64,000 bases of DNA from Paraspadella gotoi (taxonomy: Eukaryota; Animalia; Chaetognatha). The number at the start of each line of letters is the position of its first letter. Positions within the stretch are counted from its first letter, which is position 1. Positions 583-57,500 of this stretch are shown one piece after another. A program made the translations under genes and the position numbers. The DNA is taken from positions 11,853,553 through 11,917,552 of the forward strand of contig CM119267.1 in NCBI GenBank assembly GCA_051294375.1, in the 5' to 3' direction. The notes below the pieces were generated by a model. It ran no database searches and was not told the origin of the DNA. It saw nothing but the letters and a program-made list of their open reading frames with translations.

Positions 583-1950
583 TCAATTGGCATAGTGACC
601 ATTTGGCTGGTTGTTGGCTTTCTTGTATTCATTGACTTCATCGGCGTCTTCCTCCACCAGTTTGTTGTGGACATCCATGAGACCTGAGGAAAAGAATTTA
701 GTTAAGGTGATGGCAAAAGATCGCGAAAGATGTACGCAAACGCAAATACTAAACAAGCGCGTATTACAAGAGATATATTCATCAAAATAAATTAATATAA
801 GTTATATTGTATACACACAACAGCAGTTAAAATCATGTACTACTGATCGAATCTCACACTACGACCTCAGACTTTTGCCACTGTAAGTAAAAGAAAAATG
901 GGTTCACGAATCAGTTAACTAATATGAAACGATTAAAAGCAGTGAAATAAATATACAAGTGCTTTTAGTTAAACCGATCACGAATTTCTGACTAGAAACT
1001 TGAAACTCACCTTTGAAGTATTTGACGGTTTTGACTCTGAGTTCCAACGTCGCGTCTTCGTCGCACACGAACGTCGCCTTCGGGTGCAACTGGAACGCGC
1101 TCACCGTCCACATGTGATTCACGCCTGCGCGCGGAAGGAAAAGGTGTGAAATCTCGGTTGAACAAAGTGACAAAAGTGATGAGTGAAACTTCGAATCGGA
1201 AAAAGCCGTCGCGTTACGGGTTAACCCTCTCGCATCAAAAGTTAAGAATTTGAATAAGGCGTAAAATGTATGCAAATTGAAAAGGAAGAATGGGAAATAT
1301 CTGATTTAAAGCTCGAATAAGTACGCCGAGACTTATTACTTACAAAGAAGATAATAAAAACCCAAACGGTTTACTTAAATTTCTCAGAAAAAGAGTTTGT
1401 ACAATATACAATTTACATAGGACTTTAAAAAAGGAAAGCGTAAGCAAGGAGAGCTGGAAGTGAAAGTATAGCAGTAAAAGTGAGTGATGAAAGTTGGGAG
1501 AGAGGCGCGAAGTGAAGACGAGAAAGAACTGGCATCAAAATCGTAATCCTCGAAGATTGGAAATCATGAAAAAACTGAGCGAACTGAAGATTACAGAAAG
1601 AAAAATGATGATTATTTTTTTCCCGAAAAATATGAGCGACTTTGAACGGTGAAGGAAGAAAGTCGGGCGTGGAAATGGAAAAGAAGTTAGAATGGAAAGA
1701 GGGCAGAAAATTATGAGTGGGAAAAAACAAAAGATTTGAAAAAAAAATGGAAACAAAAGTTTGAAGGTTCGGAGACGAAAGATGGCGATGAAGATTTTGA
1801 GATGAGAAAAGTAAACCAAAGAATTTTGATGAAGCGAAAACGAATTAAGAAATTAGAAGAGATTAGAGAAAACTCGGGAAAGTGTATAAAGTATAAAGCA
1901 TATAATTAAGATTAATGAATAACGATTAACGATTAACATCGTCGCGATAT

Positions 1951-5000: not shown

Positions 5001-7546
5001 TGCCGTGTCCTGACCTCTTGGAGTCTGCCGTGAGCGAGGAAAGTGGAAGGAGGTGGAGGTGGTGTAGGTGTCGTTTCACCCATAATTTGAAAGTTTTTCA
5101 GATGTTAATTTACCATCTAGTGAAAATATTCCGTTGGGAGTAAAAAAATAATATTGTTACTCTTTTTTGTCAAAGTTGGGCAACCGCCTTATGTGTAACC
5201 ATCGCCTAAAGGAAAAAAAGAACACCTGGCACATTTTCGTCAAATCCTGAACTGAATCCACGTGAGCCAATACAACGTCGAAAAGATCTTATATAGTGCC
5301 CCACCTTCCAAGGATGACATGCCAGTAAAAATTTCACTCTCTCTTCATGACCCGAACGGCTCACGACAGCGAGCAGTTACTGTGTCGATGGAGCTATATA
5401 GGGTATAGGCGAGATATAATAAAGAAAAAAAAACTCTTAATATGCAAACACTTCGGAAGAAAAAATCAGCATCTAGCAGCGGCGCAGCCTGCGGAGACGA
5501 CAAAACAAAAACAGTAAAGCGAATGTCCGCTCCGTCTTCCCTAAATACCAATTCCAACTAACACGGATTCAATCGACGAGCGTTTCTTTTTTTTTACTTT
5601 TATCTCTTTTAATAATTATCGAAGGACAAAGCTCGGCCGTAATTAATCTAAAAATCAGAACGTGAAAAAGGAGAAGAAATTATATCGATCTCTACATCGT
5701 CGCGTTAATCGGAATTATCGACAATTGCAACTTCAAGATGGACGGGAGGAAACGAAAAATAAAAAAAAAAAGAACAATACGGAGAGACGAACCCAATTTG
5801 TTTTTCCGTTTCTCGTGGAAAAAATTCGGAACAGGTTTCTATTTTTTTTTTTCGAGACGTCTTCACCTGCTCTGCTGTTTCGATTCTTAATCAATTTTCT
5901 GCATAAATTTTTTATTTTAAAAACTTCTTTGGGTCTCTCAGTTAGTGCAAGTGTCTCTCCGACGAAACGAAACTAAGTATGTTGTCAAACCAGCTCAAAT
6001 AAGTTCATCTGTCGTCGTCTCGTTGCTCTTCGTCGTCGCCTGCCCGCAATCCAACCTTCGATCTTCACCTTAACTGTGAAAAACGGAGAAACGAAATATC
6101 TTTTCTAAAAAATGACATGACGCTATAGTATTATAGCTTTATAGCGGCTTTGTCTGTTCCTTGTACTTTTGTTGTTTTTGTTTCTATAGTTGGTAAATTA
6201 TATCTTTTTGTTTCTGAACATTCCGTTTCCTGTTTTTACTTCTTCTTCGTTTGTTATCTTTTCTGAAATATTTTTTGTTCTTTTTTCTCTTTCTTTCTTT
6301 CTTTCTTCTTGACCATATCTCGTGTCCTCTTTATTCCACGCTGTCTAGACTATACTCCTCTTACTTCCGTTTCTTGTCTTATCTTCGTGCCCTTCTTTTC
6401 TCTTTCTTTCTTTCTTCATCTTTTTCTTTTTTCTTTCTATCGTCTCCTTTTTCTTCTCTGCTTTCTCACTATCCATGTCTCATTCTGCCTCAACCAGTTT
6501 TCCAGCACTACGCCTGTTAGCGAACGATGTCCTCACGTATCTCTGAGCTCTATCATCGCTCAATTCTCTCACTGCGAGTCTCTCTCCTCTCTCGTCTCTC
6601 TCTTCTGCGAAGTCTCTCGATGTTACGCTCGAGCAGTCGCGAAAACGCTTCTCCAGCCCGCCGCAACCTGAAATAAGCACGCGGCAGATCTCCGACTCGC
6701 GATTGGTCTACAAGGGGAAGGTGGGCAGGCGCGGATCAGCCGGCCTGGCGGCGGCGGCGGGGCGGGGGCCGTGGAAGGCGGCAACGGGAGAACTTTTGCT
6801 CGCGCTTGAATCAGCTGATCGAAGGAAAACTCTCGAGGGTGATCTAAATAGAATGTTCCGGAAACCGACGACTAAAATCCGTTCGATAATCGGCGATAGG
6901 GGACGGGGGGGGTTTCGTCCCGTAGGTGCGCCTTTTGTCAATGTGTCAAACATGGCGCCTCGTCCTCTGCGACGACGACGAAAATCGGATTTTGAGGTCG
7001 CACATTGTAGGATTCTCGTCTGCGGATTCGACATGGAATTGTGGAAATTTTGATGAGAAAAAAAATGCGATTTTAAAATAAGACTTCGCAGTTAATTCAC
7101 CGCATCATTATCAACGTTTTTAAAATTTTGTAAATATGATTTTCTTTTCGCCAATTGTCTCTTCTTTTAAGCAACAAAATCCTCATCATATGAACTTTCG
7201 AAGTCTGATACGTTGATTCCATCGTTCACCGCTTATGTCTTCCATTGTCCTTTCTTTTTTTAAGTCCTTTAATCATTGACCTTTAATTCATTGTTATTTA
7301 AAAGGAGAAAGTATTTTGAAATTGAATTTACCACTACCAACGACAATTAAAACCGAATAATTAACAATTTGAACTGAGCTATGAATTAATCTTTTTCGGT
7401 AATAAAGGTTTAAAAATATTCCATTTTTTTAAAGGAAGGATTTTTTGGGGATTTGCCATTCGTTAAAAACGCAAATCAAGTTCTTGAATGCATGGGACCG
7501 AGTGCAGAGAGGATCGGTCAGTGCTGACGGATAGAAGAGAAAGAAA

Positions 7547-13782: not shown

Positions 13783-14698
13783 CTATCCGTCAGCCACTGA
13801 CCGATCCTCTCTGCACTCGGTCATGCATTCAAAGACTTGATTTGCGTTTTTAACGAATGCAAAATCCGCAAAAAATCCTTCTTTTAAAAAAATGAAATAT
13901 TTTTAAACCTTTAATTTTACGAAAAAGTTAATTCATAGCTCGAGTTCAAATTGTTAATTATTCGGTTTAATTGTCGTTGGTAGTGGTAAATTCAATTTCA
14001 AAATACTCTTCCCTTTTAATAATCAATGATTAAAGGTCAATGATTAAAGGACTTAAAAAAAGCAAAGGACAATGGAAGGACATAAGCGGTGAACGATGAA
14101 TGAACGTATCAGACTTCGAAGTTCATATGATGAGGAATTTTGTGCTTAAAAGAAGAGATAATTGGCGAAAAAGAAAATCAATATTACAAAATTTTAAAAA
14201 CGTTGATAATGATGCGGTGACTTAACTGCGAAGTCTTCATTTTAAAACGCAGTTTTTTTTCTCCCATAAACATTCCACAATTCCATGTCGAATCCGCAGC
14301 GAGATCCTAACAATGTCGCGACCTCAAAATCGATTCGTCGTCGTCGCAAGGACGAGGCGCCATGTTGACACATTGACAAGGCGACCTCGGGACGAAACCC
14401 CCCCCGGTCCCCCATCGGCGATTTCGACGGATTTAGTCGTCGGTTTCCGGACATTTTTAGTTTTTTTACGATTCAAACCTCGAGAGTTTTCCTTCGATCA
14501 GCTGATTCAACGCCGAGCAAAAGTTCTCCCGTTGCCGCCTCCACGGCCGCCGCCGCCGCCGCCGCCGCTGAGCCGCCTCCCTTTAGACCATCGCATCGAG
14601 ATCCTCTTCTTATCGGCGCTGGAAGCGTTTCGCGTGCTCGAGCGTAACATCGAGTGAGATGAGAGAGAGAGAGAGATTGCAGACAGGAGAGATGAGAG

Positions 14699-14732
<34 letters not shown>

Positions 14733-14851
14733 CGATGAAGAGAGAGAGAAGCCTCAGAGAAAATCTACAGGATGCAATGAGGCAAATAAAGGATATGAGA
14801 AAGAGAGAAGAAAAAGAAGATAAAAAAAGAAAAAAAAAAGAAAAAGAAGAA

Positions 14852-14907
<56 letters not shown>

Positions 14908-16093
14908 AAAGAAAGAAAGATTTAGAAGAAAAGAATAGAAAGAACAAAAAAATATTTCAGAAAGATAACAAACGAAGAAAGAAGTAAAAAACATGAAACG
15001 GAATGTTCAGAAAGAAAAGATATAATTTACCAACTATAAAAACAAAAACAACAAAGAAGAAAAAGCCGCTATAAGTATAAACTATAAAGATGTCATTTTT
15101 AGATATTTCGTTTTCGTTTTTCACAGTAATAATCAGGTTGTTTCGGGAGGCGACGACGAAGACAACGACGACGACGACGATGAACTTTTGAGCGTTGAAC
15201 AACTTTGTTCGTTTCGTCGGAGAAAATTATGACTAGACTGAGAGACCACAAAGAAGTTTTTAAAATAAAAAATTAGACAAGAAAATTGATTAAGATCGAA
15301 AAAGCAGACGGTGAAGACGTCTCGAAAAAAAAATAGAAACCTCGTCCCGAATTTTTCAGGAGAAACGGAAAAAACAAATTGGTTCGTCTCTCCGTTGTTC
15401 TTTTTTTTTTTTTATCGTTTCCTCCCTCCACTTGAGTTCGTTGAATTGATCGATAATTTCGATTTACCGACGATGAAGATCGATTAAATTTCTTCCTTTT
15501 CACGTTTGATTTTTAGATTAATTACGAGTTTCTTCGATAAATTATTAAAAGAGATAAAGTTAAAAAAAACAAAAAACGCTCGATGAATCCGTGTTAGTTG
15601 GAATTTGGTATTTAGGGAAGACGAGCGACATTCGCTTTACTGTTTTTGTTTTTGTCGGCTCCGCAGCTGCCGACGCTGCTGATGCTGATTTTTCTTCCGA
15701 AGTGCATTCATAAGAGTTTTTTTTCTTATTATTATTCCCTATATTCCCTATATACTCCATCACACAGTAACTGCTGTAGTGTAAGCCTTCGTCATGATAG
15801 AGAGTTGAAATTTTTACTGCATCATCCTTAGAAGGTGGGGCAACTAATAAGATCTTTTGGACGTTGATTGGCTCACTAGGATTCAGTCAATTGACGAAAA
15901 TGTGCCCAAGGTGTTCTTTTTTATCCTTTAGGCGATGGTAGCACTAAGGGTGTTGCACCAATTTTGACAAAAAGTAGTACAATATTATTTTTTTACCTCC
16001 CAACATATTTTCCTAGATGTAAATTAAGATCTGAAAACTTTTCAAATTTGGGTGAAACATCCTACCCCTCCACCTCCCTTCCACTTTCTCCAG

Positions 16094-27323
<11,230 letters not shown>

Positions 27324-35705: not shown

Positions 35706-35976
35706 GTATTTAATGGTCCGTCGGTCTGTCTGATTTTCTTTTTTGAGCCTGAGGATATTTCGTTCAAAAGAGTAAGCTTCAATAGCAAAATTGATTAGTT
35801 ATAAAATTTACAATAATAAGCCCTAAAAAGCTTGCTAAATGTTTAAATAACAATGAAATATTTAAATTATTTTTACCCTCCTAGACTTATTAAATGCTTG
35901 AAGTCTTGGTTGTTGTTTCGTCGAAAGAAAAAGAAGAAACTCTGAGCATTAAACAAACGCAATGAAAAGTTGAATA

Positions 35977-36842
35977 ATTGTGACGACTTTTCCTCCCTTG
36001 ACTTGCATCTACGACTGCAACGGCAACGGCACCTGCGAAAAAGGCGCCGGCGTTAGCGGGTCCCGCGTGAGAACTCAGCGCCGACTCAGCGCCGACGCTG
36101 GAGTCGACGAAGTGGTGCGACCTCTCGGAGCGCGAGACTTGCGCGACGGCGGAAGTGTCGGGAACCGGATTTGTGGAGGGCGAGGGGTTGGAGTGTGGTC
36201 TGGAGAAAGCTAAAAAACTATGAAGGGAATCTTTTTTCCATTTTTTTCCATCTCCGTGTCCAATTCCGGCGCCGTCACTTTCGCCGCGGGCGCCGCCGGT
36301 TCCACGCCGCTGCCTTTCGTCGTCTTCAATGGAAAGTGCCACGAGTGCGTCCCCAATGACGCTGGAGACAGCGGCGTCAAGTGTAGCCGTGTATTTAAGT
36401 CCGCCTGCTTCGTGGATGACGTCTGCTACGACGCCGGTGCCGCTAATCCCGTCGACGGTTGTCTCGTCTGCGACCCCAAAGGTTAATAGAAACCTCGATT
36501 TGGAGATTTTAGAATTAGAAATATTTAACCTCGATCTTCAATCTTTATTCAGCGCGTCTCGATGACTGGACGTCATCCTGCGCCACCTTCTCCTTCCCCA
36601 TCATCACCGTCGTCCTCGTCGTCGTAGTTATCGTCGTCATCATCGTCGGCGTTCTCCTCATGATGCGAGAGAAGCGTCGACGGAAGCGCACCCTCGATCT
36701 CTGCTTCCGCGCGGGCAATCGTGACGGGAAATCGTCGACGAGCGACTCCGGAGACTTGGGTCTCTATGAGTTGACGATGAAGGAGGAAGGGGGCGTTGAT
36801 AACACTTACGCCTATGCATCTAACGCAGCGCTGGGGTTTTGA
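35977..36842 (+). pseudogene. Fragment of an invertebrate VWDE-like (vWF-D and EGF) type I membrane protein; frameshifted and 5'-truncated
   Basis: CIYDCNGNGTCEKG (half EGF), frame change to PTLESTKWCDLSERETCATAEVSGTGFVEGEGLEC, frame change to ISVSNSG...FVVFNGKCHEC...C...CFVDDVCYDAGAANPVDGCLVCDPK, intron 36482-36552, then DDW, TM IITVVLVVVVIVVIIVGVLLMM, basic stop-transfer and tail. No start or signal exon found. Confidence 0.6.
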
Positions 36843-39930: not shown

Positions 39931-42900
39931 ATTGGAATTTTTTGAAAAAACGTTAGGAAAGTTTAGAAACGATCTACAAGGTCTTCAATCTTGACTGATA
40001 CGAAAAAACTTGTAATATAATCAAAACAAAGAGCATTTGGGTTAAAAAAATTTTTTGGACAAATAGATAGTGAAAATAAGTATTTAATTATAATAAAAAT
40101 AACAATTTCAGCTTGGGGAAAAAAATTACAAAAATATGACTTTGTTGATAAATAATAGTTATTATAGTAAATAAGTTAGGTATTACATGAGAATTTTTGT
40201 TTATAATAACAAATCGCCAAACTGATTTTTTATCACCAAAAATTTTTATTTTTATATCAGATAACTTCATAATTAGCATTATTACTTATTAAAGCATTAA
40301 AAACTGTTAAAATTTGGACGAAAGAATAAAGAAAAGTGACTCCACGCTTTAAGCCACTGTGATCATACCATAAAGAAATTGATCATTTATTTAGGTCAAT
40401 ATAAACATCAAATAGTTTTTTAACTCATAAATATTATAAAAATAATATACAGTAAGAGAATTACGAGTTTAATCAAATCTTTTCGTATCAGTCCAGATTG
40501 AAGACCCTGTATAATTTCATTGGCCGAGGTGAGGACCTAAATTTCATTTTTAAGTAGCAAATTCATTTGTTATTTAAAAATAAACAATCAAAACTTTTTC
40601 ACACACCAGTCAGTAGCGACGTCGAAAGAGTAAAGCAATGAAAAGACAACTGGTTTCACCACAAGGAGAACGAGTGAGACGACGAGCACAACGATTCTCG
40701 GGAGTCGCGCTCCGACGCCGGAATCTGATACAGTCTTTTTCGACGCTTCATCGTCTGTCTTTTCCTTCGCACGAATGCGTGCAGCGACCTTGGACTTTTG
40801 CTTTTTCAAAAGGACGACGGCAGCTACGAACCAAATCAGTGCGATCGCTGCACAATATTCCACGATCCTCATCTGCACCGGATGCAGCGCGCAGATCAAG
40901 TAAGTCATTGTGGTGACTTTTTGGGAACCGTTACAGTGATTTAGTTGAGAGAAATTGGCGACGATCGGTTGATCGGCCTTAGATGCGTTCTTCGCGCAAT
41001 TTTCTTCACAACTGATCGACACGAATTTTGGAAAACTCGCTCTAAACGTGTGACTGTTGCTTAGCAACGGACGACCGCCGTCGAGACGCCAAACGATGTC
41101 CGACGAGTTGAGCTCAGGACATTCGAGTTCTTTCGAGGTATCGATGTAGACCCTTTCGTACTTCTCGCAAGAGGGCGAGACTCCCGCCTCGACCCAAGCG
41201 CCCATTTTTTTGTGCGGGTCTTCTGTGCAAGTAATGGATTTGGATCCCTGGAGAGTATAGCCCTTGCGACACTTGAGATAACACGTGGACCCTTTGATCG
41301 AAAAAGGGCAACCCAACATGTTTTCTTGGTGGTAGGGAAGGCAGCCATCTGCAGTTGTAAACGTAATGATATTCATAATTTACGTATTTATTGAAATAAA
41401 ATAATTATTAAAATATTTTTTATTCAACTTCTATTCCTTTTCATTTTTAGATGATTAAGATTCAACCGACCGTATTTTGTCATAGTAAGGTTTTTCCAAA
41501 TATATTTTTTTTCAATCCAGAGCTCCATGTCAGATGATATGAATTTTTGGGTTTTCGTTTCTAGGCCAACTTTATCCAAACAGACAGAATATCCCGACCC
41601 GATTTCATTTGATAAGGCTATCAGCATATTCTTTATGCCGTCCAAGGGAGGATTGCAGGTACAGTTTTCTTGCAGATCGTCATTTGATGAAAGACCTTTA
41701 TTATTGTTTATATTGAGCGAACAAATTTGGTCATCATCTGCTGAGATTTTGACGCTGAATGATGATGATGATCCAGATCCCACAAGAGAGCAAGTCGACA
41801 AGCTAATTTGAAAGTCCTTTACCATTTCTGGATTATGAAAATGAATAATTTATATTATATTCACATAATGATGCAGTATCGCTCTAGGAAACAATTTATT
41901 TTACCTCTTTCGCAATTAAAACCAATGAAAAGGCCGGTGCAATTGCATCGGTATTGATTGATTCCATCGATGCAATTTCCCCCGTTCTGACACGGATTCG
42001 ACTCACAATCATCAATGTCTATTTAAAAGAACATTGAGCCTTTATACTCGTTTTTTATGACTAGTTGGATAAAAACATGAGCTTACTTATGGAACAATTT
42101 TTTCCAGTAAATCCTATGTTGCAATTGCAGGTGTATTTATTTATTCCATCTAGGCAGGTACCGTTATTTGCGCAAGGTTGTACCTCGCACTCATCAATAT
42201 CTAGTTACAACAAAATAATACAAAATATTGATTAAGAATGACTTAATTGCGTTAACCATTGTAGTTGGTGACTGTATAGAAGTGTTCTCATTTGGAGGAC
42301 TTTTAGGTCACGTGGGTCATATCTCTGGCCACCGTGGTCACCTTTTCACGTCGCCAAACTCACTTATCTCACAAGTAGGTCCAGAGAATCCGGGAACGCA
42401 TTGGCAATCGAATCTATTTACATTATTAATGCATGTTGCATTATTTTGACATGGATTGGATGCGCATTCGTCGATGTCTGGTCAAAATATATTGTTTAAA
42501 ACGTAATTGGAATAATGACAATTTTTTGACTAAACCTGTTTCACAGTTTTTTCCAGTGTAGCCAGCTGTGCAGTTACAATAATAGTCGTTAATACTGTGA
42601 ATGCAAGTGCCCATTTTACAAGGGCTCGACGCACATTCATCGATGTCTGGCGGAAAAATATTGAAGTTTTAATATATATTTAGAAAACGATCCTCATTTA
42701 CTTCTGTAATTTTTTTATAAATTACTATAACAGAGAATATCAATATTGGGTAAAAACCTTCGGAGCACTGGGTTCCAGCGTATCCTGGAACGCAATGGCA
42801 AGTGTAATATGTGTCACCGTCTTCGCAGGTGGCGCCGTTTTGGCACGGATTTGGTTCACAGAAGTCAACGTCTTAACAAAAAGAGAAAAGAGCATCGATG

Positions 42901-44389
42901 AGAGATGAATGCCATTGTGAATTTACTAATAAATTGCTCATAACATTACGTACCTATTTCGCAGAGTTTACCCGTGAACCCTCGTTCGCACTTGCATTCG
43001 AAAGCATTGATGTTATCCAGACAGATTCCATTGACGCAAGGATTTGAGACACATTCGTCGATATCTATGTATTAGTAAAATAGAGAGAGTCAATAAACTA
43101 TTCCGCATTAATTTAAATAATCCGCCTATGCCTTACCCCTTTGACAAATTCCTAAACTGTCAGAGATGTTTACTTTTTTTCGCGCTAAAAAAAAAAGATG
43201 TTAGTGATAATAAATAATCCCGAAAATTTATTTTGCCGGTAAGTTCAACGTACCTTCTACTAACTCACTGTAAATGAATTCGTTCAGTTGTATAACAGTT
43301 TCATTCGTAAATATTGACCGTGAATTATCAGATTCTTTAATATCAATCACAACATCGAGAAGTGCACCGCGATTCTCTGTTAGCAATAAAATTTGCTGAA
43401 TACTAACGAATGTTTTTTTTAATTTTAAAGCTCAAACATACATGTATATTGTATAAACATTTTACCTCCAATCCAAAGTTTCATGTTGGAAAGCGCGGCA
43501 TAATCGTTCACTACACGAATTTCAATAGCATAACAATAATAATAATATTCATTCGCAAGGGTCTTTTCAGCAAAAAATTCATGGCCCTTTCCACCCTGTA
43601 GATGTTTATCATAGCCGTATCGGCAATCATTGTTAATAGCTATTATATCGTGTTGCTGCTTTACACTATAGTGCGCTTTGAATTTTATTTTTTCCACTTT
43701 AACCGGCCAATCAAAGTGGAACCACCATCGAACGGTTTTCTGTTTAAACTCTTTAGAGCACCAATAATCATACGGACTCCCGTCAAGAAACGCATCTTTT
43801 GGGGGGTAGTTAGCGATTTTGCTATATATTTCCGAGGTAGCAACTGCAACTCCATTTTTTTCTTTGTCCAAAGTTAATGCTGAAAATTTTGTAGTCACAT
43901 TTATTGGATTAATGATTTAAGATATTGTAATTGTTAATATTTAAAAAAATACCCTTTTCAGGAGCAAGATACCAATATTTTCCCGCCATGTCAAAATTCT
44001 TCAACAACGATTTGATTTCACTTATTTTATCAGTGTCCAGAACTGCCAACCGGCGACCGTCTTCAAGTAGAAACAAAGTTATCAAAATTTAAACAATGAA
44101 CAAAATTTTAAAATTGAGAAAATTACTCCTTTTTCTATATCCAGTTCCAGTTAAAACTTCCCATCGTTTTTTCCTGCTTACCCTCACTTTCGCACCATTG
44201 CCCGTGTTCAGCGATGCTTCCATCATTCCACACGACCGAATATTCGAAACCATTCATGGTTCCGAGGTGAACCATCGGCGGAGATTCCGACAACGACGAC
44301 GAAGCACGATAAACGAACAAAAATAGGAATAGAACATAACTTGCAATGATCCCGCTAAAATTACATATTTGCACGACAAGAGGCGCCAT
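37307..44389 (-). CDS. ~1,500-aa receptor-like XK-related protein: signal peptide - CTLD-like - discoidin/F5-8C-like - 6x Ca-binding EGF - PLAT/LH2 - Sushi - Ig-like - TM - XK-related multi-pass domain - acidic tail
   Basis: 19 phase-consistent GT-AG exons: 44389-44182, 44060-43953, 43879-43466, 43376-43254, 43184-43137, six EGF exons between ~43064 and ~41905 (DIDEC...CxCxxGxxGxxC), 41827-41471 (PLAT-like), 41348-40607 (Sushi, Ig-like, TM, start of XK), 39877-38911, ~38649-38406, ~38265-38010, ~37920-37870, ~37820-37767, ~37668-37307. XK hallmarks: [11 protein letters not shown]|[21 protein letters not shown] and [24 protein letters not shown]. Confidence 0.85.
39977..40509. mobile_element. 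Tc1/mariner-type MITE in the intron that splits the first XK helix
   Basis: TA|CAAGGTCTTCAATCTTGACTGATACGAAAA...TTTTCGTATCAGTCCAGATTGAAGACCCTG|TA: ~30-bp TIR and TA target duplication. Confidence 0.85.
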
Positions 44390-45483
44390 CTTGGACGTAA
44401 TTTTCGGATCTGAAGAAAATCCCGGCGACTTGAGATATTATACGTACAATAAAATGGCTCCCACAAAGGTTTCATTCAACACGAGGATATACACGGATTA
44501 TCCGATGTAGAAACTCCCCGGTTTAATCCCGCAGAATTGACTAACACTTTGATTAGGAAATAGATATCTAGTGATCAGAGATTATACCATAAATCGGAAT
44601 AAAAATATTAGCTGAGGGAAAAGTCGACATAAAATATATGTTCATATACGTTAAATGAAAAAAAAATAGGGAAAAAAAGCTTGGACTGAAGAATAAATCT
44701 ATGAAATTGGTACAACCAATATAAAAATTATCTACGTATATCTTTTTACCCGCAGAGTCTAACGTTCGTGTTGCCCATCCAAAGCAGTTTTGACTAGAGT
44801 TTAGGAAAAGTATTTTTTAATGTATAAACGTAATTAAAACACGGTTCAGAAAAACGAACGAATAACGGTCATGATAATTGATATTTGTGAAAAAGTCGTC
44901 GTTGTTGTTGTTTTTGTTGTTGTCGTCGCCGCAAATTGACCTTAAAATGCTTAACTTAAGTCAAACGAAGTTGAGGGAAAGAGATAAGGTCAAACGTTTC
45001 ATCAGTGACAATGTGTGTAAAACTATCTGTATCACTCATTTTCAGGATGAATATTCCACTGTTGTCCCGCTTATCTCCTGTTTCGCAATCGCCCCTAAAA
45101 CTTTAGACAGTAGACAAATATCTTATTTTGAATTCGTTCGTTGCGTAATAATGTTTATCATTCCTAATCGCATTCTTGGTCTGGTAAATAAGGGAAGTAG
45201 AGGCTTGAATATGTAACTTATGGGCACAATGGTTCGTGGTAAAGTCGTCGTTGGTCGAGGTTAGGTTCTTCGTTTGGAGGTGACACAATGTAGTAATTAT
45301 CGAGTGGCATTCGGCAATAAATCACGACAGAATTTCTTATTAGAAACTAACGTGTACCATTTCAATAGCGCCATCGTAAATCATAGAAAATGTCGTTTAC
45401 GAACGACGTTTTTCTCTCGGACTGAAGACTTTTCACCTCGGCAACCCTAATCAATTTTTAAGACCTCCGGGACCTGGCGTGAA

Positions 45484-51098: not shown

Positions 51099-53117
51099 TG
51101 AATTTAAATATCAAACCTAAATTTTAATATTTAGAATAACAGAAGCATCTATACTCACGTATAATCGTACAATCTGCAATTGTGGACACCGTCGCAGATT
51201 TTGCTGAGCGGCAAACACTTTAACGTGGAAAAGTACAACTTGAAAAAAATTAAGGACAAATAAGAAAATATTTCCCATTCGAATCGCCAGGAAAGGAGCC
51301 GGAGGCCCTCTCACCGTCGCGTTCAACTCGGCGTCCCTCGATCGATTTCCCGGCGTATTGACACCGGACACTTTGTCTTTGACGCCCTTCTCGACTCCGG
51401 TCACGTTAAAGCCGAGGGCATGGCTCGTTACATTGGGGGAGTTCATGACAAACGAAATACAGTCGAATCTCCGAATTTTTCTATTTGTGCAATAAAATGT
51501 GAGATGTCTGCAGAAGTGACGCCACTCGTCCGAACCATCTGGACAATCCATAAATCCGTCGCAAACTGAGAGATAAACGAGCTAATGATTCAAATCATCA
51601 ACTTTATACTGTCTTGCCTGGTGACGTTGCTTCAACTGTCTTACCTTTTCTCCTCACTTTCTACTCACCTTTCTCATTACTGACACAGTCCCTTTCCCAA
51701 AAATCTGTACGGGTGACGCAGTGGAACTCGTTCTTTTCGCCGGTGCAGCTGTCGGCGCGACACCAAACGACGTCGAAACAAAGCGTCGAAAACAAAAAGA
51801 AAAAGGATTTCATGATGACGAAGAAAATCATAATATTTACAATTACGTTACAAATTTGGGGTGGATTTCGACATTTTGACCCAATAATACGGATTCTTTT
51901 CGGTTGAAGTTTTGATTGCTTTTTTTCTGCTTTATCTCTTATTCGAGAGGGTTCCTAGCGCAGATAAGGAGAGTCGTGGCAAAGGGCAAGTTATTTTTTT
52001 AATCCGAACGCTGAATAATAATAATACATGTTGAGAAAAAAAATCAAAATTAAAGATATTGTTTTTATCTACCTGTTTCTTGGTCGATCATTCATTTCAA
52101 AAATTCCTTTCACGCGATTAAAAGTAAGATATATTCATAAGGCTAAAATAAGGAATATCAACGTTTCATTCTTACTCTTGACATAGAGTTGAACAAAAAA
52201 ATTAAAAAGACCAAGAATATTGCTATTTGGTTTTCATTTAAAATTAAATATTCCAAATGTGTCATTTGTTTATTAACTTCAGCATTGAAGCGGTGACGTC
52301 GGAAATTACAAGAATTCAAAAGAGAAGAAAAAGGGAAATCAGAATGAAGCAGAGGCAGAGATTAATACGCCGACTCCGAAGAAATCAGGTCAGATAATTA
52401 GTTTGAATCTCAAGTAACTAATATTAATAAGAACGATACCCGAAGTAATACCCCAAAAGAGAAGCATTGATTTATTCATGTATTAATTAATTTATTTAAT
52501 TTATTCTATTTATTATTCGATTGATAGCCATCCTTCCGCGGCGATTCCATAGTTCGAGACACTTCCTTCGGATCTTTCACCAAAAACGGGCGATTCTCCC
52601 CTCACGGTCCAATCGCCGACAAACCGTGGTTTCTCTACGTTAAGTGAGAATTTTTCAGTCGCCCGGAATTTCTAAAACAATATTATTATTTTTTGAAGTA
52701 TTTATTTTTTGATGACCGACCTTGACACATCCAAATACAAGATTCTCCGAAGAGGCGTCGGGCGGCAACTGCTACGAAAAAGGAAGTAGTTACGTTTTTC
52801 GCGACATCTACCGCCTCATGAATTCGGTGGGTTATGCTTGGATTCACGGCGCTGCTGGCGTCATCTTGTGGGACGCCGGCTGTTTCTATAATTACCCAGA
52901 GCTCCACCCTAGGTAAATTTAGAGCGTTTTATATGTTTTTCTGATTTTCTCAAAACCTATTTCGTTCTATTTAATTTAATTTAATTTAATTTATCTATTC
53001 GACCTGTTTGATTGTTTTTTTAGATATTGTGCCGATCTGCGTCGTTACATCGACTCAACTTTGGGTCCTTTCTGTAAAATGCTTCTCGATTCCAAATGGT
53101 TTAATCCGCACGGTTAA
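46114..53117 (+). CDS. HYAL: Hyaluronidase (glycoside hydrolase family 56), no C-terminal EGF domain
   Basis: Exons 46114-46280, 46467-46677, 47033-47161, 48171-48321, 48514-48619, (51950-51985, GC donor), 52283-52388, 52528-52643, 52742-52912, 53024-53117. Motifs FKIYWNAPSENC, IVIFY..G..PYY, GGIPQLG...HL, GLAILDWEEWRPRW (catalytic D-x-E), LRPKARWGYYHYPDC, GAAGVILW, YIDSTLGP. Confidence 0.95.
46701..46900. repeat. 50-bp minisatellite x4 in hyaluronidase intron 2
   Basis: Unit aatatgagaccagggcttagggattaacgagacgattaggatct(a/t)attat, variants in ABAB order. Confidence 0.97.
48903..51813 (-). CDS. LDLRAD-like type I membrane protein (signal peptide, 2x LDLa, TM, two PPxY motifs) nested antisense in hyaluronidase intron 5
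   Basis: MKSFFFLFSTLCFDVVWCRA; LDLa1 CTGEKNEFHC...DCVSNEK|VCDGFMDCPDGSDEWRHFC; LDLa2 CTNRKIRRFDC-[~55 aa insert]-CLPLSKICDGVHNC...T|IDSDEDNC; TM WWLRILGTTIGVIVVFGFCVCAAV (~50660-50595); last exon ~49200-48903 with APPPYV and PPPPPYD. Splicing into the last exon is uncertain. Confidence 0.85.
49313..49547 (+). mobile_element. tRNA-derived SINE-like repeat, copy 1
   Basis: tRNA-like head with acceptor-like GCGGTCA/TGGTCGT, A-box-like TGGTGCCGGAGG and T-arm CCGGG-GTTCTAG-CCCGG; highly similar second copy at 57570-57804. Confidence 0.7.
49560..50146. mobile_element. Fold-back MITE with TTAA target duplication (Kolobok-like GG...CC termini)
   Basis: TTAA|GGCGTAGTAAAA...TTTCACGACGCC|TTAA; the whole ~590 bp is an imperfect palindrome centred near 49860. 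Confidence 0.8.
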
Positions 53118-53276
53118 TTTAAATAACGTTTATATCATAGGCCTCGTCATTGTCATTAACAATTATATTAATTAAAACAAAGAAAAAATATCGACAACAA
53201 AATTTACATAATCAGTCATCCCAAATAATTATTTAGAAAAAAGTATCTTCCTTTGCATCTTATTTTACGATTTGTA

Positions 53277-53895
53277 TTTTAGTCGAATCTGCTTATCAGC
53301 AGATTCCGACTCTATAATTCACTTTGTCGGTCTGTCGGTCCTACCCCAAAAGCTTGTCGGTGAATCATTTTGTCATATAAGAATATTGAATTATGATAAA
53401 TTAGGCAAAAAAATAATGTCTGTCCGTCCGTCCATCCGCCTGTCTGAGTGTCCGTATCCCCTTAGTGATTGAATGGCTGGATTAAAATGAAATTTTGTGT
53501 GTGGGTAGGAAAGTGTGTGATTGAGCTGGATATAAAGTTATGATGGAATCGTGCAAATGGAAATGGGTTTACATGGAAAAAACATAAGTCACATTTACTA
53601 AAATCTTCTAATCAGTTTTAAAAATGATGCAAGTTAAAAAAATGATGCAAGTAAAAAAAAATGATGCAAGTTTAAAAAATAAAAATAGTTAAAAAAATAT
53701 TTGTTTGTACCTTAGTAACAGTTTAATCACTTGCAAGTGATTTAAATATATTGGCGCAGCCATTGGTTTGGTATAGTATAATCAGTTAGGATTAAATATT
53801 AAAATAATTATTCTGATTTATCATCTGATTAGCTAATTACCTCTTAATTATCATAGGCAGATCCGACATTGTTTGCTCAAACATGTTTGTTTTCA
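53277..53895 (+). mobile_element. Second HINE-like (Helentron-derived) non-autonomous element
   Basis: TTTT-AGTCGAATCTGC-ttatca-GCAGATTCCGACT hairpin, (GTCC/GTCT)n microsatellite, 3' sub-terminal GCAGATCCGAC (~53858) followed by hairpin TGTTTG-CT-CAAACA and a T-rich end. Confidence 0.65.
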
Positions 53896-54521
53896 ATTTT
53901 GTAATTCGCAGATTATTTAGAATTCTGACTGTTACATGACAAAAAAAATTTTTTTTATGTTTTCAAGAATGTTCCGTTAAACTCCGTTAGCGTTTTAATT
54001 AATATACATAAATACATAGATAATTGAGTGTGGTGGTTGAGCTAACGTAGTTTCACAGTAATTTTATATTTCTTCAGAAATAACAGTTTTTTCAAAGTAC
54101 TTCTAACAACAAAACAATTCAACGGTTTTTTAATCTTTTTGTGGCGCAGGACACAAAAAATTAAATCCATTATTGCTGTAGTCAAAACTTCGAAGGTCGT
54201 TGGAGGGAGAAATTCACCAATGTACAACAACTACTACGTTAACTTGTTCTTTACTAACAACGACGAAGGAGCCAACATTCATAACCAAGAAGCAATAACA
54301 AAAAAAATATGGTTTGGTATTGGTAAATACTGAACGGGTGGCTTTTTATAAATAAAATTTCAACAAGCTATCACATTCTTTCTCCATGTTGTTTTTGTTT
54401 CTTAACGCGAGCGCTCGATACAATAAAAATTTTAAACGGCACGGCTTAAAGCCGCATAATAAATCAAAATGACGGATGTGCTCAACGAATCTTCTACCGG
54501 AAGTGGCAGGATCGCCCCGTA

Positions 54522-57500
54522 TCAGTTACTCTGCCATTCGTCGCCGTCCAGCGTCTCCACCGACCCGACGACCTCGTGGTAACTCGGCGGAGGCGTCACA
54601 AAGTCCCGTCGATCGGCGTCGACGATGCCCGCCGCGACGCCGCCCGACGAGCTTCCGCCGCCGGCGCCGCCTCCTCCTCCAAAGCAATCCGACCCCCTGG
54701 CCGCCATGTCGTCCGGTTTTCCGTCGCCGTCTTCAACGACAGGACCGGCCTCCGCTTTGCCGAATACTTCCGGGATGACGCCCTCTCTCGGAGCGCCTTC
54801 TCCCAGGACGCCCTCCCCGCTCGTCGACCCCGTCTGCGTGTAGGTGTGGCAGATGGAGTGATAGGGCGGGGGTGTGGCGTCGTTGTACGGAAGAAGCTCG
54901 AGGGTGTGTCGCAGCGCCACTAGTTCCAGCGACGTTCTCACTTCCGGGAGAGAACCGGAGCCGATCGTGGCGCCGGAGTCGACGGGGACGGCGCCGTGGC
55001 TTTGAGCTCCGCCTCCGACGGCGACGTTGTGACGGACCAAGTTGAGGCGATGGGAGGAGGGGTTGTAGCGAACGGAGGCCGTCGTCCGTACCGTGACGTC
55101 CTCGCTAGAGTTGGGGGATTGGGCTTCCGCTGTTGGCGTCGAGATTTGGGAAAGAAAAGGGATTAACAGACAGCCTAAACTCAACCGGGTGCGATCTCGT
55201 TCAATAATAAGGAACACTATATCTATATCTATATCCTAACTCAAGAAACCTTATTCTAATTACGAATTTTGTTTGAATAACTAAATATTGATAATTGTCT
55301 CTTTTGCCACTACTGTCTGTCATCGTCTTGGTCATAACCTTACTCATTACTCCAGATATAATCAAATTTGTTAATCGAAATTAGGTACACTTCGTTTTTC
55401 GATTAAACGTCAACGGAAACGAAAGCTAATTTTTTGAGAGAATTTTTAACAAAACAAAAAAGGTCCTGTTCCGGATTCGGGGGAGCCCGGTCTGAGGGAA
55501 CGCCTAATGGACCGGGGCTTTCGTTTTTATGATCGTCTTTATGGACGTCGTTAGTTTCGATTTCTACTCCATCGTTCTCTTCGCCATTTTTTTCCACCGT
55601 CTCCGTCGTTTCTCTTTCTCTCTTGGCCAGCAGACGAGAGTAGGTTTTAGAAGGAGGAAACATAGAAAGAGAAGGGAGTTGAGGTCTCTCTCTCCCTCTC
55701 ACCCTTGTTCTTGACTACATAACGTTTTAGTCCTCTAATTTGCCATTTTTATTCCTCAATTTTCTCTTCCAATTTTATCCACTCAACATTACAAAGAAGA
55801 GGAATAAGGTTAAAAACTATCTTCGCTTAGAAATTAGGATTCAGCTATACTTGAACTCAGTGTATGTAAATCTGCTTCCATGACATCTTTCTCCCTTCAC
55901 CTTCAGTCCCCCTCCTCTTGCCGCCACCTCACGTCGACTTACCTGACCCCAACTCACCCATCTTAGCGCTTCCACCTCTTCGAAAATCCTCTTCTCCCCT
56001 TATATCCTTCAATCTCCGAATCAGTCTTGCGATTTCTATTCTCTCCACCTCGAGTCGTCGAGAGCGAAGCGTGACTCGTTTTCGCAATCACATTAGCAAT
56101 CATTTGCTTTCCTTTTATCTTTCTTCCTATGACAACAGCCGGGTTGCCTGTGATGCCCATTGGGATGGGGCATCTCACTGTTGGCTTTGGGGGCTTCCGA
56201 CCCTCAGTGACGCCTCCTGTCACTGGCGCTGTTACCCTAGGAAGGTCTCGCTTAGTCAACGCAGAGGAAGGAGGTTAGGACTGTGGAATGGTGGAATGAT
56301 GCGTTCCCCCTCTGAGCCAATGGGATTGGCTGAATGATGATGGACGTGAGGCTGGGTAAATATACCGCCAAGACATCAGTCAGGTTCTCCAGGCCTGAGA
56401 GGTGTCTTACATGACTGTTACCATAGTGGGAGAGAGAGAGTGCAAGTTGTGGGGGCATAGGCGTTTATCGTAACGTACTCCAGGGGCATAGGCATTTTTC
56501 ATAGTGTACCCGAAGTTGGCAGGGCATAGGCGTTTGTCGCAGCTCACCACTTATGGCAACAGCCGGGTTGCCTGTGATGCCCATTGGGATGAGGCATCTC
56601 ACTGTTGGCTTTGGGGGCTTCCGACCCTCAGTGACGCCTCCTGTCCGTGGCGTGGTTACCCTAGGACGGTCTCGCTTTGCCAAGGCAGAGGGAAGTCATT
56701 AAGACTGGATGGAACGCAATGCCTGGGATGGTGCGTTCCCCCTCTGAGCCAATGGGATTGGCTGAACGATGATGGACGTGAAGCAGTGTGAATAAACCGC
56801 CACATCCCTTTGTTTATTTATTTATTTATTTATATTTTTTTATAATTTCTTACTATTTACTATTTTATATTTAAATTATTTCATTTCTAAAATTTTTAAT
56901 TCCTCTTCCTATTTCACTTGTATTATAACAGAAATTATAAGATCTGGGATTTTTTGTTTGAAGCACAATTTTTCCCCTTAGCCATAAACCCATAAACGCT
57001 TCACTTTACTTTTTTTAAACACCTCCCCCCCGACTGCTTCACCACCTCGCCCCACCCTCTTCCTCTTACCCTCCACGCTCCTGGCGAACTCTTCCACCTT
57101 AGACCGGATGTTGCTGTAGAATAAGGCGAAGAGGCCGACGAAGATTCCGGCCAACCCGATCGAGAGTCCGATGAGGAAGGACGCACCCTCGCAGGCCTGC
57201 TCGTCAGTCGAGTCACCGTCCCCGCAGTTGGGCACGTAGTTGCAGCGCAGCGAAAAGTGTACGCAGTAGCCCGTCGTCATGCAGAGCAGCTGGTCGCACC
57301 TGAGTCGGTTGTAGATGTTAATTGTTATATATCTTATTCCTTTTATTGTAATCCTAAACTTTTACATAATACAATATTGCCTTTGTCAAAGTTATTGTAT
57401 CGAATTTCCCTCTCTCTCTATCTCTCTCTTTCTCTGAAATGAAAAATTTGTGAATTCACAAATCTGTTATTAAGCGCTGATTGTAATTGTAAAAAGTCGA

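Follow-up and report, generated by a model that had tools for sequence, protein, structure and literature searches.

The window, by which we mean the whole 64,000-nucleotide stretch of Paraspadella gotoi DNA analysed here, contains on its minus strand a gene whose predicted product joins a long extracellular region to an XK-type membrane domain. We assembled an 18-exon model, running from 44389 to 37307, which encodes 1518 residues with 0 internal stops. GT-AG borders are present at all 17 of its introns, and the introns of the window are in general short, AT-rich and of the GT-AG type. Taken by themselves, the EGF, sushi and hyaluronidase matches of this eukaryotic DNA would suggest an animal source. 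The strings named in a preliminary description of this DNA all fall in one frame of a minus-strand open reading frame (41379-40588). Exon 13 (41348-40607, minus strand) encodes a sushi domain, a Cys-rich module, an extra transmembrane helix (TM0), a 36-residue linker and the first helix of the XK domain. Upstream of this exon lie 12 further exons that the preliminary description did not mention.

Several other features share the window. Hyaluronidase exons (PF01630; 46465-48446, plus strand) stand head to head with the XK gene, and a convergent neighbour (35974-36842, plus strand) consists of Cys-rich exons followed by a single-helix exon, with no informative Pfam match. Exons at 51120-57361 (minus strand) encode LDL-receptor class A repeats, which score below the Pfam cut-off, together with a membrane helix and a PPxY-like tail. 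Near-identical translated runs in opposite orientation at 6547-7091 and 14226-15006 are likely to represent an inverted duplication. We take the stretch at 919-1305 (minus strand) to resemble glucosamine-6-phosphate deaminase, and that at 15895-16341 (plus strand) to resemble the C-terminal part of a two-pore potassium channel; neither has a Pfam match at E 0.01.

Transcript structure and ectodomain

Splicing was assessed using contigs of X1, a run that we took to be RNA on its canonical joints: these are seen for 13 of the 17 introns, and 2 further introns are implied by record coordinates. Two other runs, X2 and X3, matched the window only at a repeat. In X1 record 2, letters 1-929 correspond to 41533-40605 and letters 933-1566 to 39872-39239. 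This fits the predicted junction 40607/39877 exactly, so the exon bearing the module and TM0 and the exons of the XK domain belong to one spliced transcript. Exon 13, from its sushi domain through the module, TM0 and linker to XK alpha1, is thus spliced to the XK exons. Multi-copy AT-rich repeats are found within intron 13 (40023-40511) and upstream of the gene (44700-44732), and both stand out in X1 by a very high summed depth of contigs and by numerous variants.

Rather than standing alone as a unit of basigin size, the module and helix form the foot of a large predicted ectodomain. This predicted region of about 800 residues, comprising a signal peptide, six EGF repeats and a sushi domain, had been overlooked previously. 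Exon 1 (44182-44389), which is covered by X1 record 3, provides the start codon and a hydrophobic N-terminal segment (residues 8-26, hydropathy 2.21) that is predicted to serve as a signal peptide or anchor. Exons 2-5 (44060-43953, 43879-43466, 43376-43254 and 43184-43137, the last being a micro-exon) encode extracellular modules, are connected by X1 joints and gave no relevant Pfam or PDB match. Six EGF-like repeats follow in exons 6-11 (41905-43064), one per exon and with phase-1 introns throughout, as identified by Pfam, tblastn and X1 joints; the Pfam cut-off was exceeded in all three of the EGF exons scanned, and the other three match these by tblastn. The open frame of exon 12 (41471-41827) encodes a 119-residue module with no Pfam or PDB match. 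The region of exons 1-3 has what we take to be a lectin-like and discoidin (F5/8)-like look, and exon 12 a presumably PLAT-like one. These lectin, discoidin and PLAT labels were not confirmed, and the C-type lectin profile gave 0.3 bits. The sushi/CCP domain at the start of exon 13 (41164-41348) scores 22.2 bits against PF00084 (cut-off 20.7) and has weak matches to complement control proteins (best E 0.011). A match to factor H at E 1.1 was taken as chance.

All 12 introns of the ectodomain are in phase 1. Predicted intron 12 (41470-41349, 122 nt, GT-AG) has a weak donor and a stop in frame at 41426-41424, and is unspliced in X1 record 2, the sole contig covering it. Incomplete splicing at the weak donor may account for this, the contig depth being about 6. 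For intron 11 (41904-41828), the X1 contigs display no joint; depth arithmetic is compatible with this intron being either spliced or unspliced, and hints at a short gap before 41533; we gave this calculation no weight. We infer that the EGF block is joined in frame to the sushi exon. Base composition changes at the same boundary as the retained intron: GC3 is 238/625 (0.38) in exons 1-12 as against 542/834 (0.65) in exons 13-18 (P 2e-24). Exons 1-12 also differ from the rest of the window, where 11 stretches that are likely to be coding have a GC3 of 0.50 to 0.86 (these were picked by eye, and the frame is that of their open reading frame).

These features could mean that the locus makes two products, with exons 1-12 encoding a secreted EGF protein that ends at the stop in intron 12, and the sushi-module-TM0-XK cassette expressed separately or as a minor spliced form. 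The unspliced state of the intron, its weak donor, two AATAAA sequences past the stop and the coincidence with the GC3 step would all fit such an arrangement. However, the cassette would then lack any signal peptide, and upstream the neighbouring gene is the divergently oriented hyaluronidase. The intron itself is intron-like in composition (GC 0.21), its acceptor is good and its phase agrees with that of the adjacent introns, and two AATAAA sequences occur in 10% of shuffles and in 2 of 16 other introns. Three of four homologue fragments have acceptor-like residues directly before the sushi domain, as judged from protein only, and X1 contigs, at a depth of about 6, drop variants. We therefore consider separate products improbable. 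The GC3 step and the phase-1 introns together suggest an outer block that either was added to an older cassette by shuffling or belongs to a gene of its own. We regard it as likely that exon shuffling placed the outer ectodomain, as an exchangeable block, on a sushi-Ig-like-TM0-XK cassette of greater age.

The Cys-rich module and the extra helix

The module preceding TM0 spans about 95 residues (708-802; 41163-40879) and is conserved in a homologous fragment (P0003, below). The ELEC, IVWRLDG and SISC strings, from which a minimal Ig domain had been proposed, are indeed in frame and place Cys722 at 41121, Trp732 at 41091 and Cys759 at 41010. The module holds five Cys residues (722, 759, 763, 784 and 798), not the two listed earlier, and the spacing from Cys722 to Cys759 is only 37. 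Shuffling the 100-residue segment 20,000 times produces a bare C-x(7-15)-W-x(20-60)-C pattern in 18.6% of cases, which makes it weak evidence. When hydrophobic context is included, the frequency falls to 0.37% of 20,000 shuffles, for a pattern that was picked after seeing the sequence.

A tyrosine-corner motif before the F-strand Cys is a hallmark of canonical IgSF domains. A motif scan of the module found neither D-x-G-x-Y-x-C nor Y-x-C before Cys759. The 100-residue module matched 0 Pfam families, and thus no Ig family, and no basigin chain appeared among PDB sequence matches at E up to 10. When AlphaFold was given the single sequence, the module stayed unfolded (mean pLDDT 44.6); given two sequences, the program placed strands at module positions 22-26, 45-53 and 83-89, corresponding to the Trp, Cys759 and Cys798 segments (mean pLDDT 54.6). 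Foldseek matches to the two-sequence model, at E 0.4 or worse, were mostly PKD, cadherin, butyrophilin and glycan-binding beta-sandwiches, and the Atlas neighbours of the module were Ig-type clusters at 0.75-0.78, below the tool's 0.9 mark. Together, these three signals, each of them weak, lean toward an Ig-like beta-sandwich. The module is therefore probably such a sandwich rather than a canonical I-set domain. Matches in a wide VIA search were taken up by helical hairpins (best Z 7.8, residues 91-184) and say nothing about the module. As another candidate we considered the HYR domain (PF02494), which was rejected: the Pfam scan of the module contained no HYR match, a profile built from 16 HYR domains of 3 proteins gave at best 0.8 bits, and the hhalign probability was 0.9%.

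TM0 (residues 807-826; 40866-40807, minus strand) was identified by hydropathy and by identity to P0003; the Kyte-Doolittle 19-mer mean over these 20 residues is 2.45. As had been described, it is followed by a basic stop-transfer sequence, KKQKSK (40806-40789). This opens the predicted cytosolic linker of 36 residues (40806-40699), in which a DDE triplet stands 18-20 residues past TM0 both here and in P0003. One might speculate that this triplet could take the part of Glu230 in basigin. Cys798 lies 9 residues before TM0. Both the order of elements and the charge bias around TM0 fit a helix that passes from outside to inside and adjoins the module. XK proteins have a cytosolic N-terminus, so that one additional membrane pass is required by any ectodomain fused to them; TM0 would be explained by topology alone.

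We searched 1.84 billion representatives using HMMER and obtained 59 proteins at E up to 0.001. The order of module, TM0 and XK is conserved in one of them, P0003, a single-member ENA record of 188 residues from a 704-base contig that aligns with query residues 79-246 (37%, E 1.6e-14). This fragment carries the module, TM0, a shorter linker and XK alpha1-alpha2, unbroken. Identities are 24/64 in the module, 10/24 in TM0 (residues 803-826), 6/25 in the linker and 12/29 in alpha1. Within the aligned range P0003 shares the Trp and four Cys of the module; Cys722 lies outside it. In the other 58 proteins the best stretch begins in the sushi domain, and four short fragments (P0025, P0033, P0045 and P0056) also share a few residues past it. 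A Pfam scan of 27 of the 59 matches showed all 27 to be sushi proteins, 0 of them with XK or IgSF families. Word-based protein searches yielded P0003 alone among 1361 candidates, with none among 5879 longer candidates for exon 13 or 2223 for exon 14, and metagenome scans confirmed 0 of 297 and 0 of 147 stretches. Across the protein, HMMER and metagenome searches no full-length homologue was found, and a single homologue covers the fusion.

The XK domain and its conserved residues

The XK domain begins at residue 863. Its first helix, alpha1 (TM1; 40698-40607), contains Asp888 and Asp892 and was recognised by its identity to P0003, whose own alpha1 stretch matches positions 5-46 of PF09815 (E 0.0064, below the cut-off). 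Exon 14 (39877-38911) encodes XK TM2 to approximately TM6, with Trp907, Glu1014, Glu1018 and Gln1022. It scores 36.7 bits against PF09815 (cut-off 24.8) over profile positions 20-146 of 337, and its XK region reaches 0.92 to XK clusters in Atlas. Exons 15-16 (38648-38406 and 38265-38010), connected by X1 joints, encode a predicted re-entrant helix, TM7 (alpha9), a loop with a lone Cys1262 (38510) and TM8. We take this loop to be equivalent to that in which Cys347 of XK sits. Taken alone, exons 15-16 gave no XK Pfam match, no Pfam alignment extends over the C-terminal half of the XK domain, and phmmer at E up to 10 returned no XK structure among its matches. Exons 17-18 (37920-37870 and 37668-37307), supported by X1 joints and record 1, encode a predicted cytosolic tail of about 150 residues and the stop; the tail contains the only D-x-x-D-[GSAN] caspase-type motif, at residue 1400. 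A loop of about 78 residues with four Cys and an N-glycosylation motif (39450-39217, minus strand) separates predicted TM3 and TM4, and a second long loop, of about 80 residues, separates predicted TM7 and TM8.

XKR8 is reported to have eight transmembrane helices and two half-helices (PMC8500837), and TM3 is reported to be polar across the XK family (PMC8298096). In our protein hydropathy exceeds 1.5 in six segments and predicted TM7 falls below this threshold; alpha9, TM7 and TM8 are named by helix order and hydropathy only. Six residues of XKR8 are reported to be needed for scrambling, namely D26, D30, E137, E141, K134 and R183, with D129 contributing to stability (PMC8500837). XKR8 D26, D30, W45, E137, E141 and Q145 correspond at identical spacing to D888, D892, W907, E1014, E1018 and Q1022. 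The two spacing motifs occur together in 0.025% of 20,000 shuffles, and D-x3-D-x14-W is also present in P0003. Four of the six scrambling residues (D26, D30, E137 and E141) are thereby kept, and R183 cannot be placed. By ungapped spacing, K134, D129, R42 and Q155 are replaced by S (Ser1011), V (Val1006), D and I, respectively.

On the basis of the kept residues, scrambling activity is plausible. Given the four replacements and the C-terminal half that cannot be aligned, it may have been lost, and one alternative holds that the protein is a non-scrambling adhesion or signalling receptor, its XK domain a diverged membrane anchor and scaffold and its function residing in the ectodomain and the 150-residue tail. 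Retention of four buried acidic residues together with Trp907 and Gln1022 argues against this alternative, as does the shared motif in P0003, and we regard it as doubtful.

Relation to known XK complexes

In the structure reported for the XKR8-basigin complex, the basigin helix lies on alpha9, and basigin E230 pairs with XKR8 R284 (PMC8500837). The same report describes E230 as indispensable for the chaperone effect and surface delivery, a single Ig domain as sufficient, and cross-links between basigin A207/P211 and the outer end of XKR8 alpha9, through T302 and T305 (PMC8500837). XK is reported to be disulfide-bonded to Kell via Cys347 (PMC11371627). The preliminary description had proposed, along these lines, that an accessory Ig-TM subunit is fused to the XK domain. 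Pfam and the X1 contig show a covalent link of the module and helix to that domain, in an order conserved in P0003.

The specific likeness to basigin or neuroplastin that had been proposed with this fusion was not supported. A built-in basigin or neuroplastin would have TM0 resting on alpha9, the Ig-like module as the membrane-proximal Ig domain, and the two acting as an attached folding or trafficking subunit, possibly secured by a Cys798-Cys1262 disulfide. The order of elements is that of the minimal basigin chaperone, one Ig domain plus helix (PMC8500837). TM0 is conserved to much the same degree as alpha1, and other 24-mers of the XK part or signal peptide reach at most 6 identities to the TM0 of P0003. 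The odd Cys count of the module and the single Cys1262 in the loop after predicted alpha9 are compatible with the disulfide, at a site where engineered XKR8-basigin cross-links form and, by analogy, XK bonds to Kell via Cys347 (PMC8500837, PMC11371627). A linker of 25-36 residues would not prevent TM0 from taking the alpha9 position.

Against this stand several findings. Asp and Glu are absent from residues 810-840 and from P0003 81-110, and thus there is no equivalent of Glu230. No Arg is evident before predicted alpha9, within the half that cannot be aligned; the nearest basic residues for the role of XKR8 R284 are R1230/R1231, in the predicted re-entrant helix. The module lacks a Pfam Ig match and the tyrosine corner, its Cys-Cys spacing is short, and topology accounts for TM0 without a chaperone role. 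A prediction of the complex without alignment, with module-TM0-alpha1 and exons 14-16 as separate chains, scored 0.00 twice and carries no weight either way. Furthermore, XKR9 is reported not to bind basigin (PMC8298096), and purified XKR4 and CED-8 are reported to scramble in liposomes (PMC12334663), so basigin does not appear to be a family-wide need. We therefore judge a built-in basigin to be unlikely. Less probable still is a family of ligand- or adhesion-gated scramblases with such a built-in subunit, in which TM0 would occupy the basigin site, Cys798 would be tied to Cys1262, the EGF/lectin-type ectodomains would be swappable and phosphatidylserine would be exposed independently of caspases.

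The explanation that we place first, and to which we give roughly an even chance, is a receptor-like XK lipid scramblase in which TM0 serves primarily as a topological anchor. The long extracellular region would have the module and TM0 as its stalk and anchor, in a predicted protein with nine membrane-spanning helices. The signal peptide would send the chain of EGF, sushi and Ig-like domains outside; TM0, stopped by KKQKSK, would bring the chain back to the cytosol and thereby leave the XK domain in its usual orientation. TM0 would pack somewhere on the XK core, and the acidic residues retained in TM1 and TM3 would form the lipid path. The placing or gating of phosphatidylserine exposure would fall to binding or adhesion by the ectodomain instead of to a separate chaperone subunit.

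Such a protein would resemble the XKR8-basigin complex (PDB 7DCE; PMC8500837) in its XK core, with D26/D30/W45/E137/E141/Q145 conserved by spacing, and in having an extra helix with a probably Ig-like domain outside. It differs from the reported complex in that the helix is covalently N-terminal to alpha1 and has no Glu230 equivalent, and in its non-canonical five-Cys module and predicted EGF/sushi ectodomain of about 800 residues. The reported XK-Kell complex (PMC11371627) is similar in that XK is covalently tied to a single-pass partner, and a lone Cys is present here in the predicted last outer loop. Nothing in our protein resembles Kell, however, and the disulfide here is a guess. Kell is a separate type II protein of the metalloprotease family. 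A long modular ectodomain on a multi-pass effector is also found in polycystin-1, with its extra N-terminal helices and Ig-like PKD modules, and in adhesion GPCRs; these have another membrane fold, and no GAIN domain was seen here, so we draw only an analogy and claim no homology. XKR9, which folds without basigin, and XKR4 and CED-8, which scramble when purified, differ from our protein in that the portions of the reports cited here describe no extra helix or ectodomain and attribute regulation to cleavage of the cytosolic termini (PMC8298096, PMC12334663).

The mostly open-access literature that we covered on XK architectures and invertebrate XK evolution contained no XK protein with an ectodomain. 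The architecture is real, conserved in P0003 and apparently undescribed. In the same literature, XK scramblases are switched from inside the cell, by caspase cleavage or phosphorylation. If an XK protein does have its own ectodomain, contact from outside would have a means of controlling local phosphatidylserine exposure, as in cell fusion, pruning or engulfment. The single chain would also provide a natural test of whether the XK fold has, in the partner site used by basigin and Kell, a slot that is ancient and can be reused. Even if TM0 is only an anchor, the protein would represent an undescribed domain architecture of a known family.
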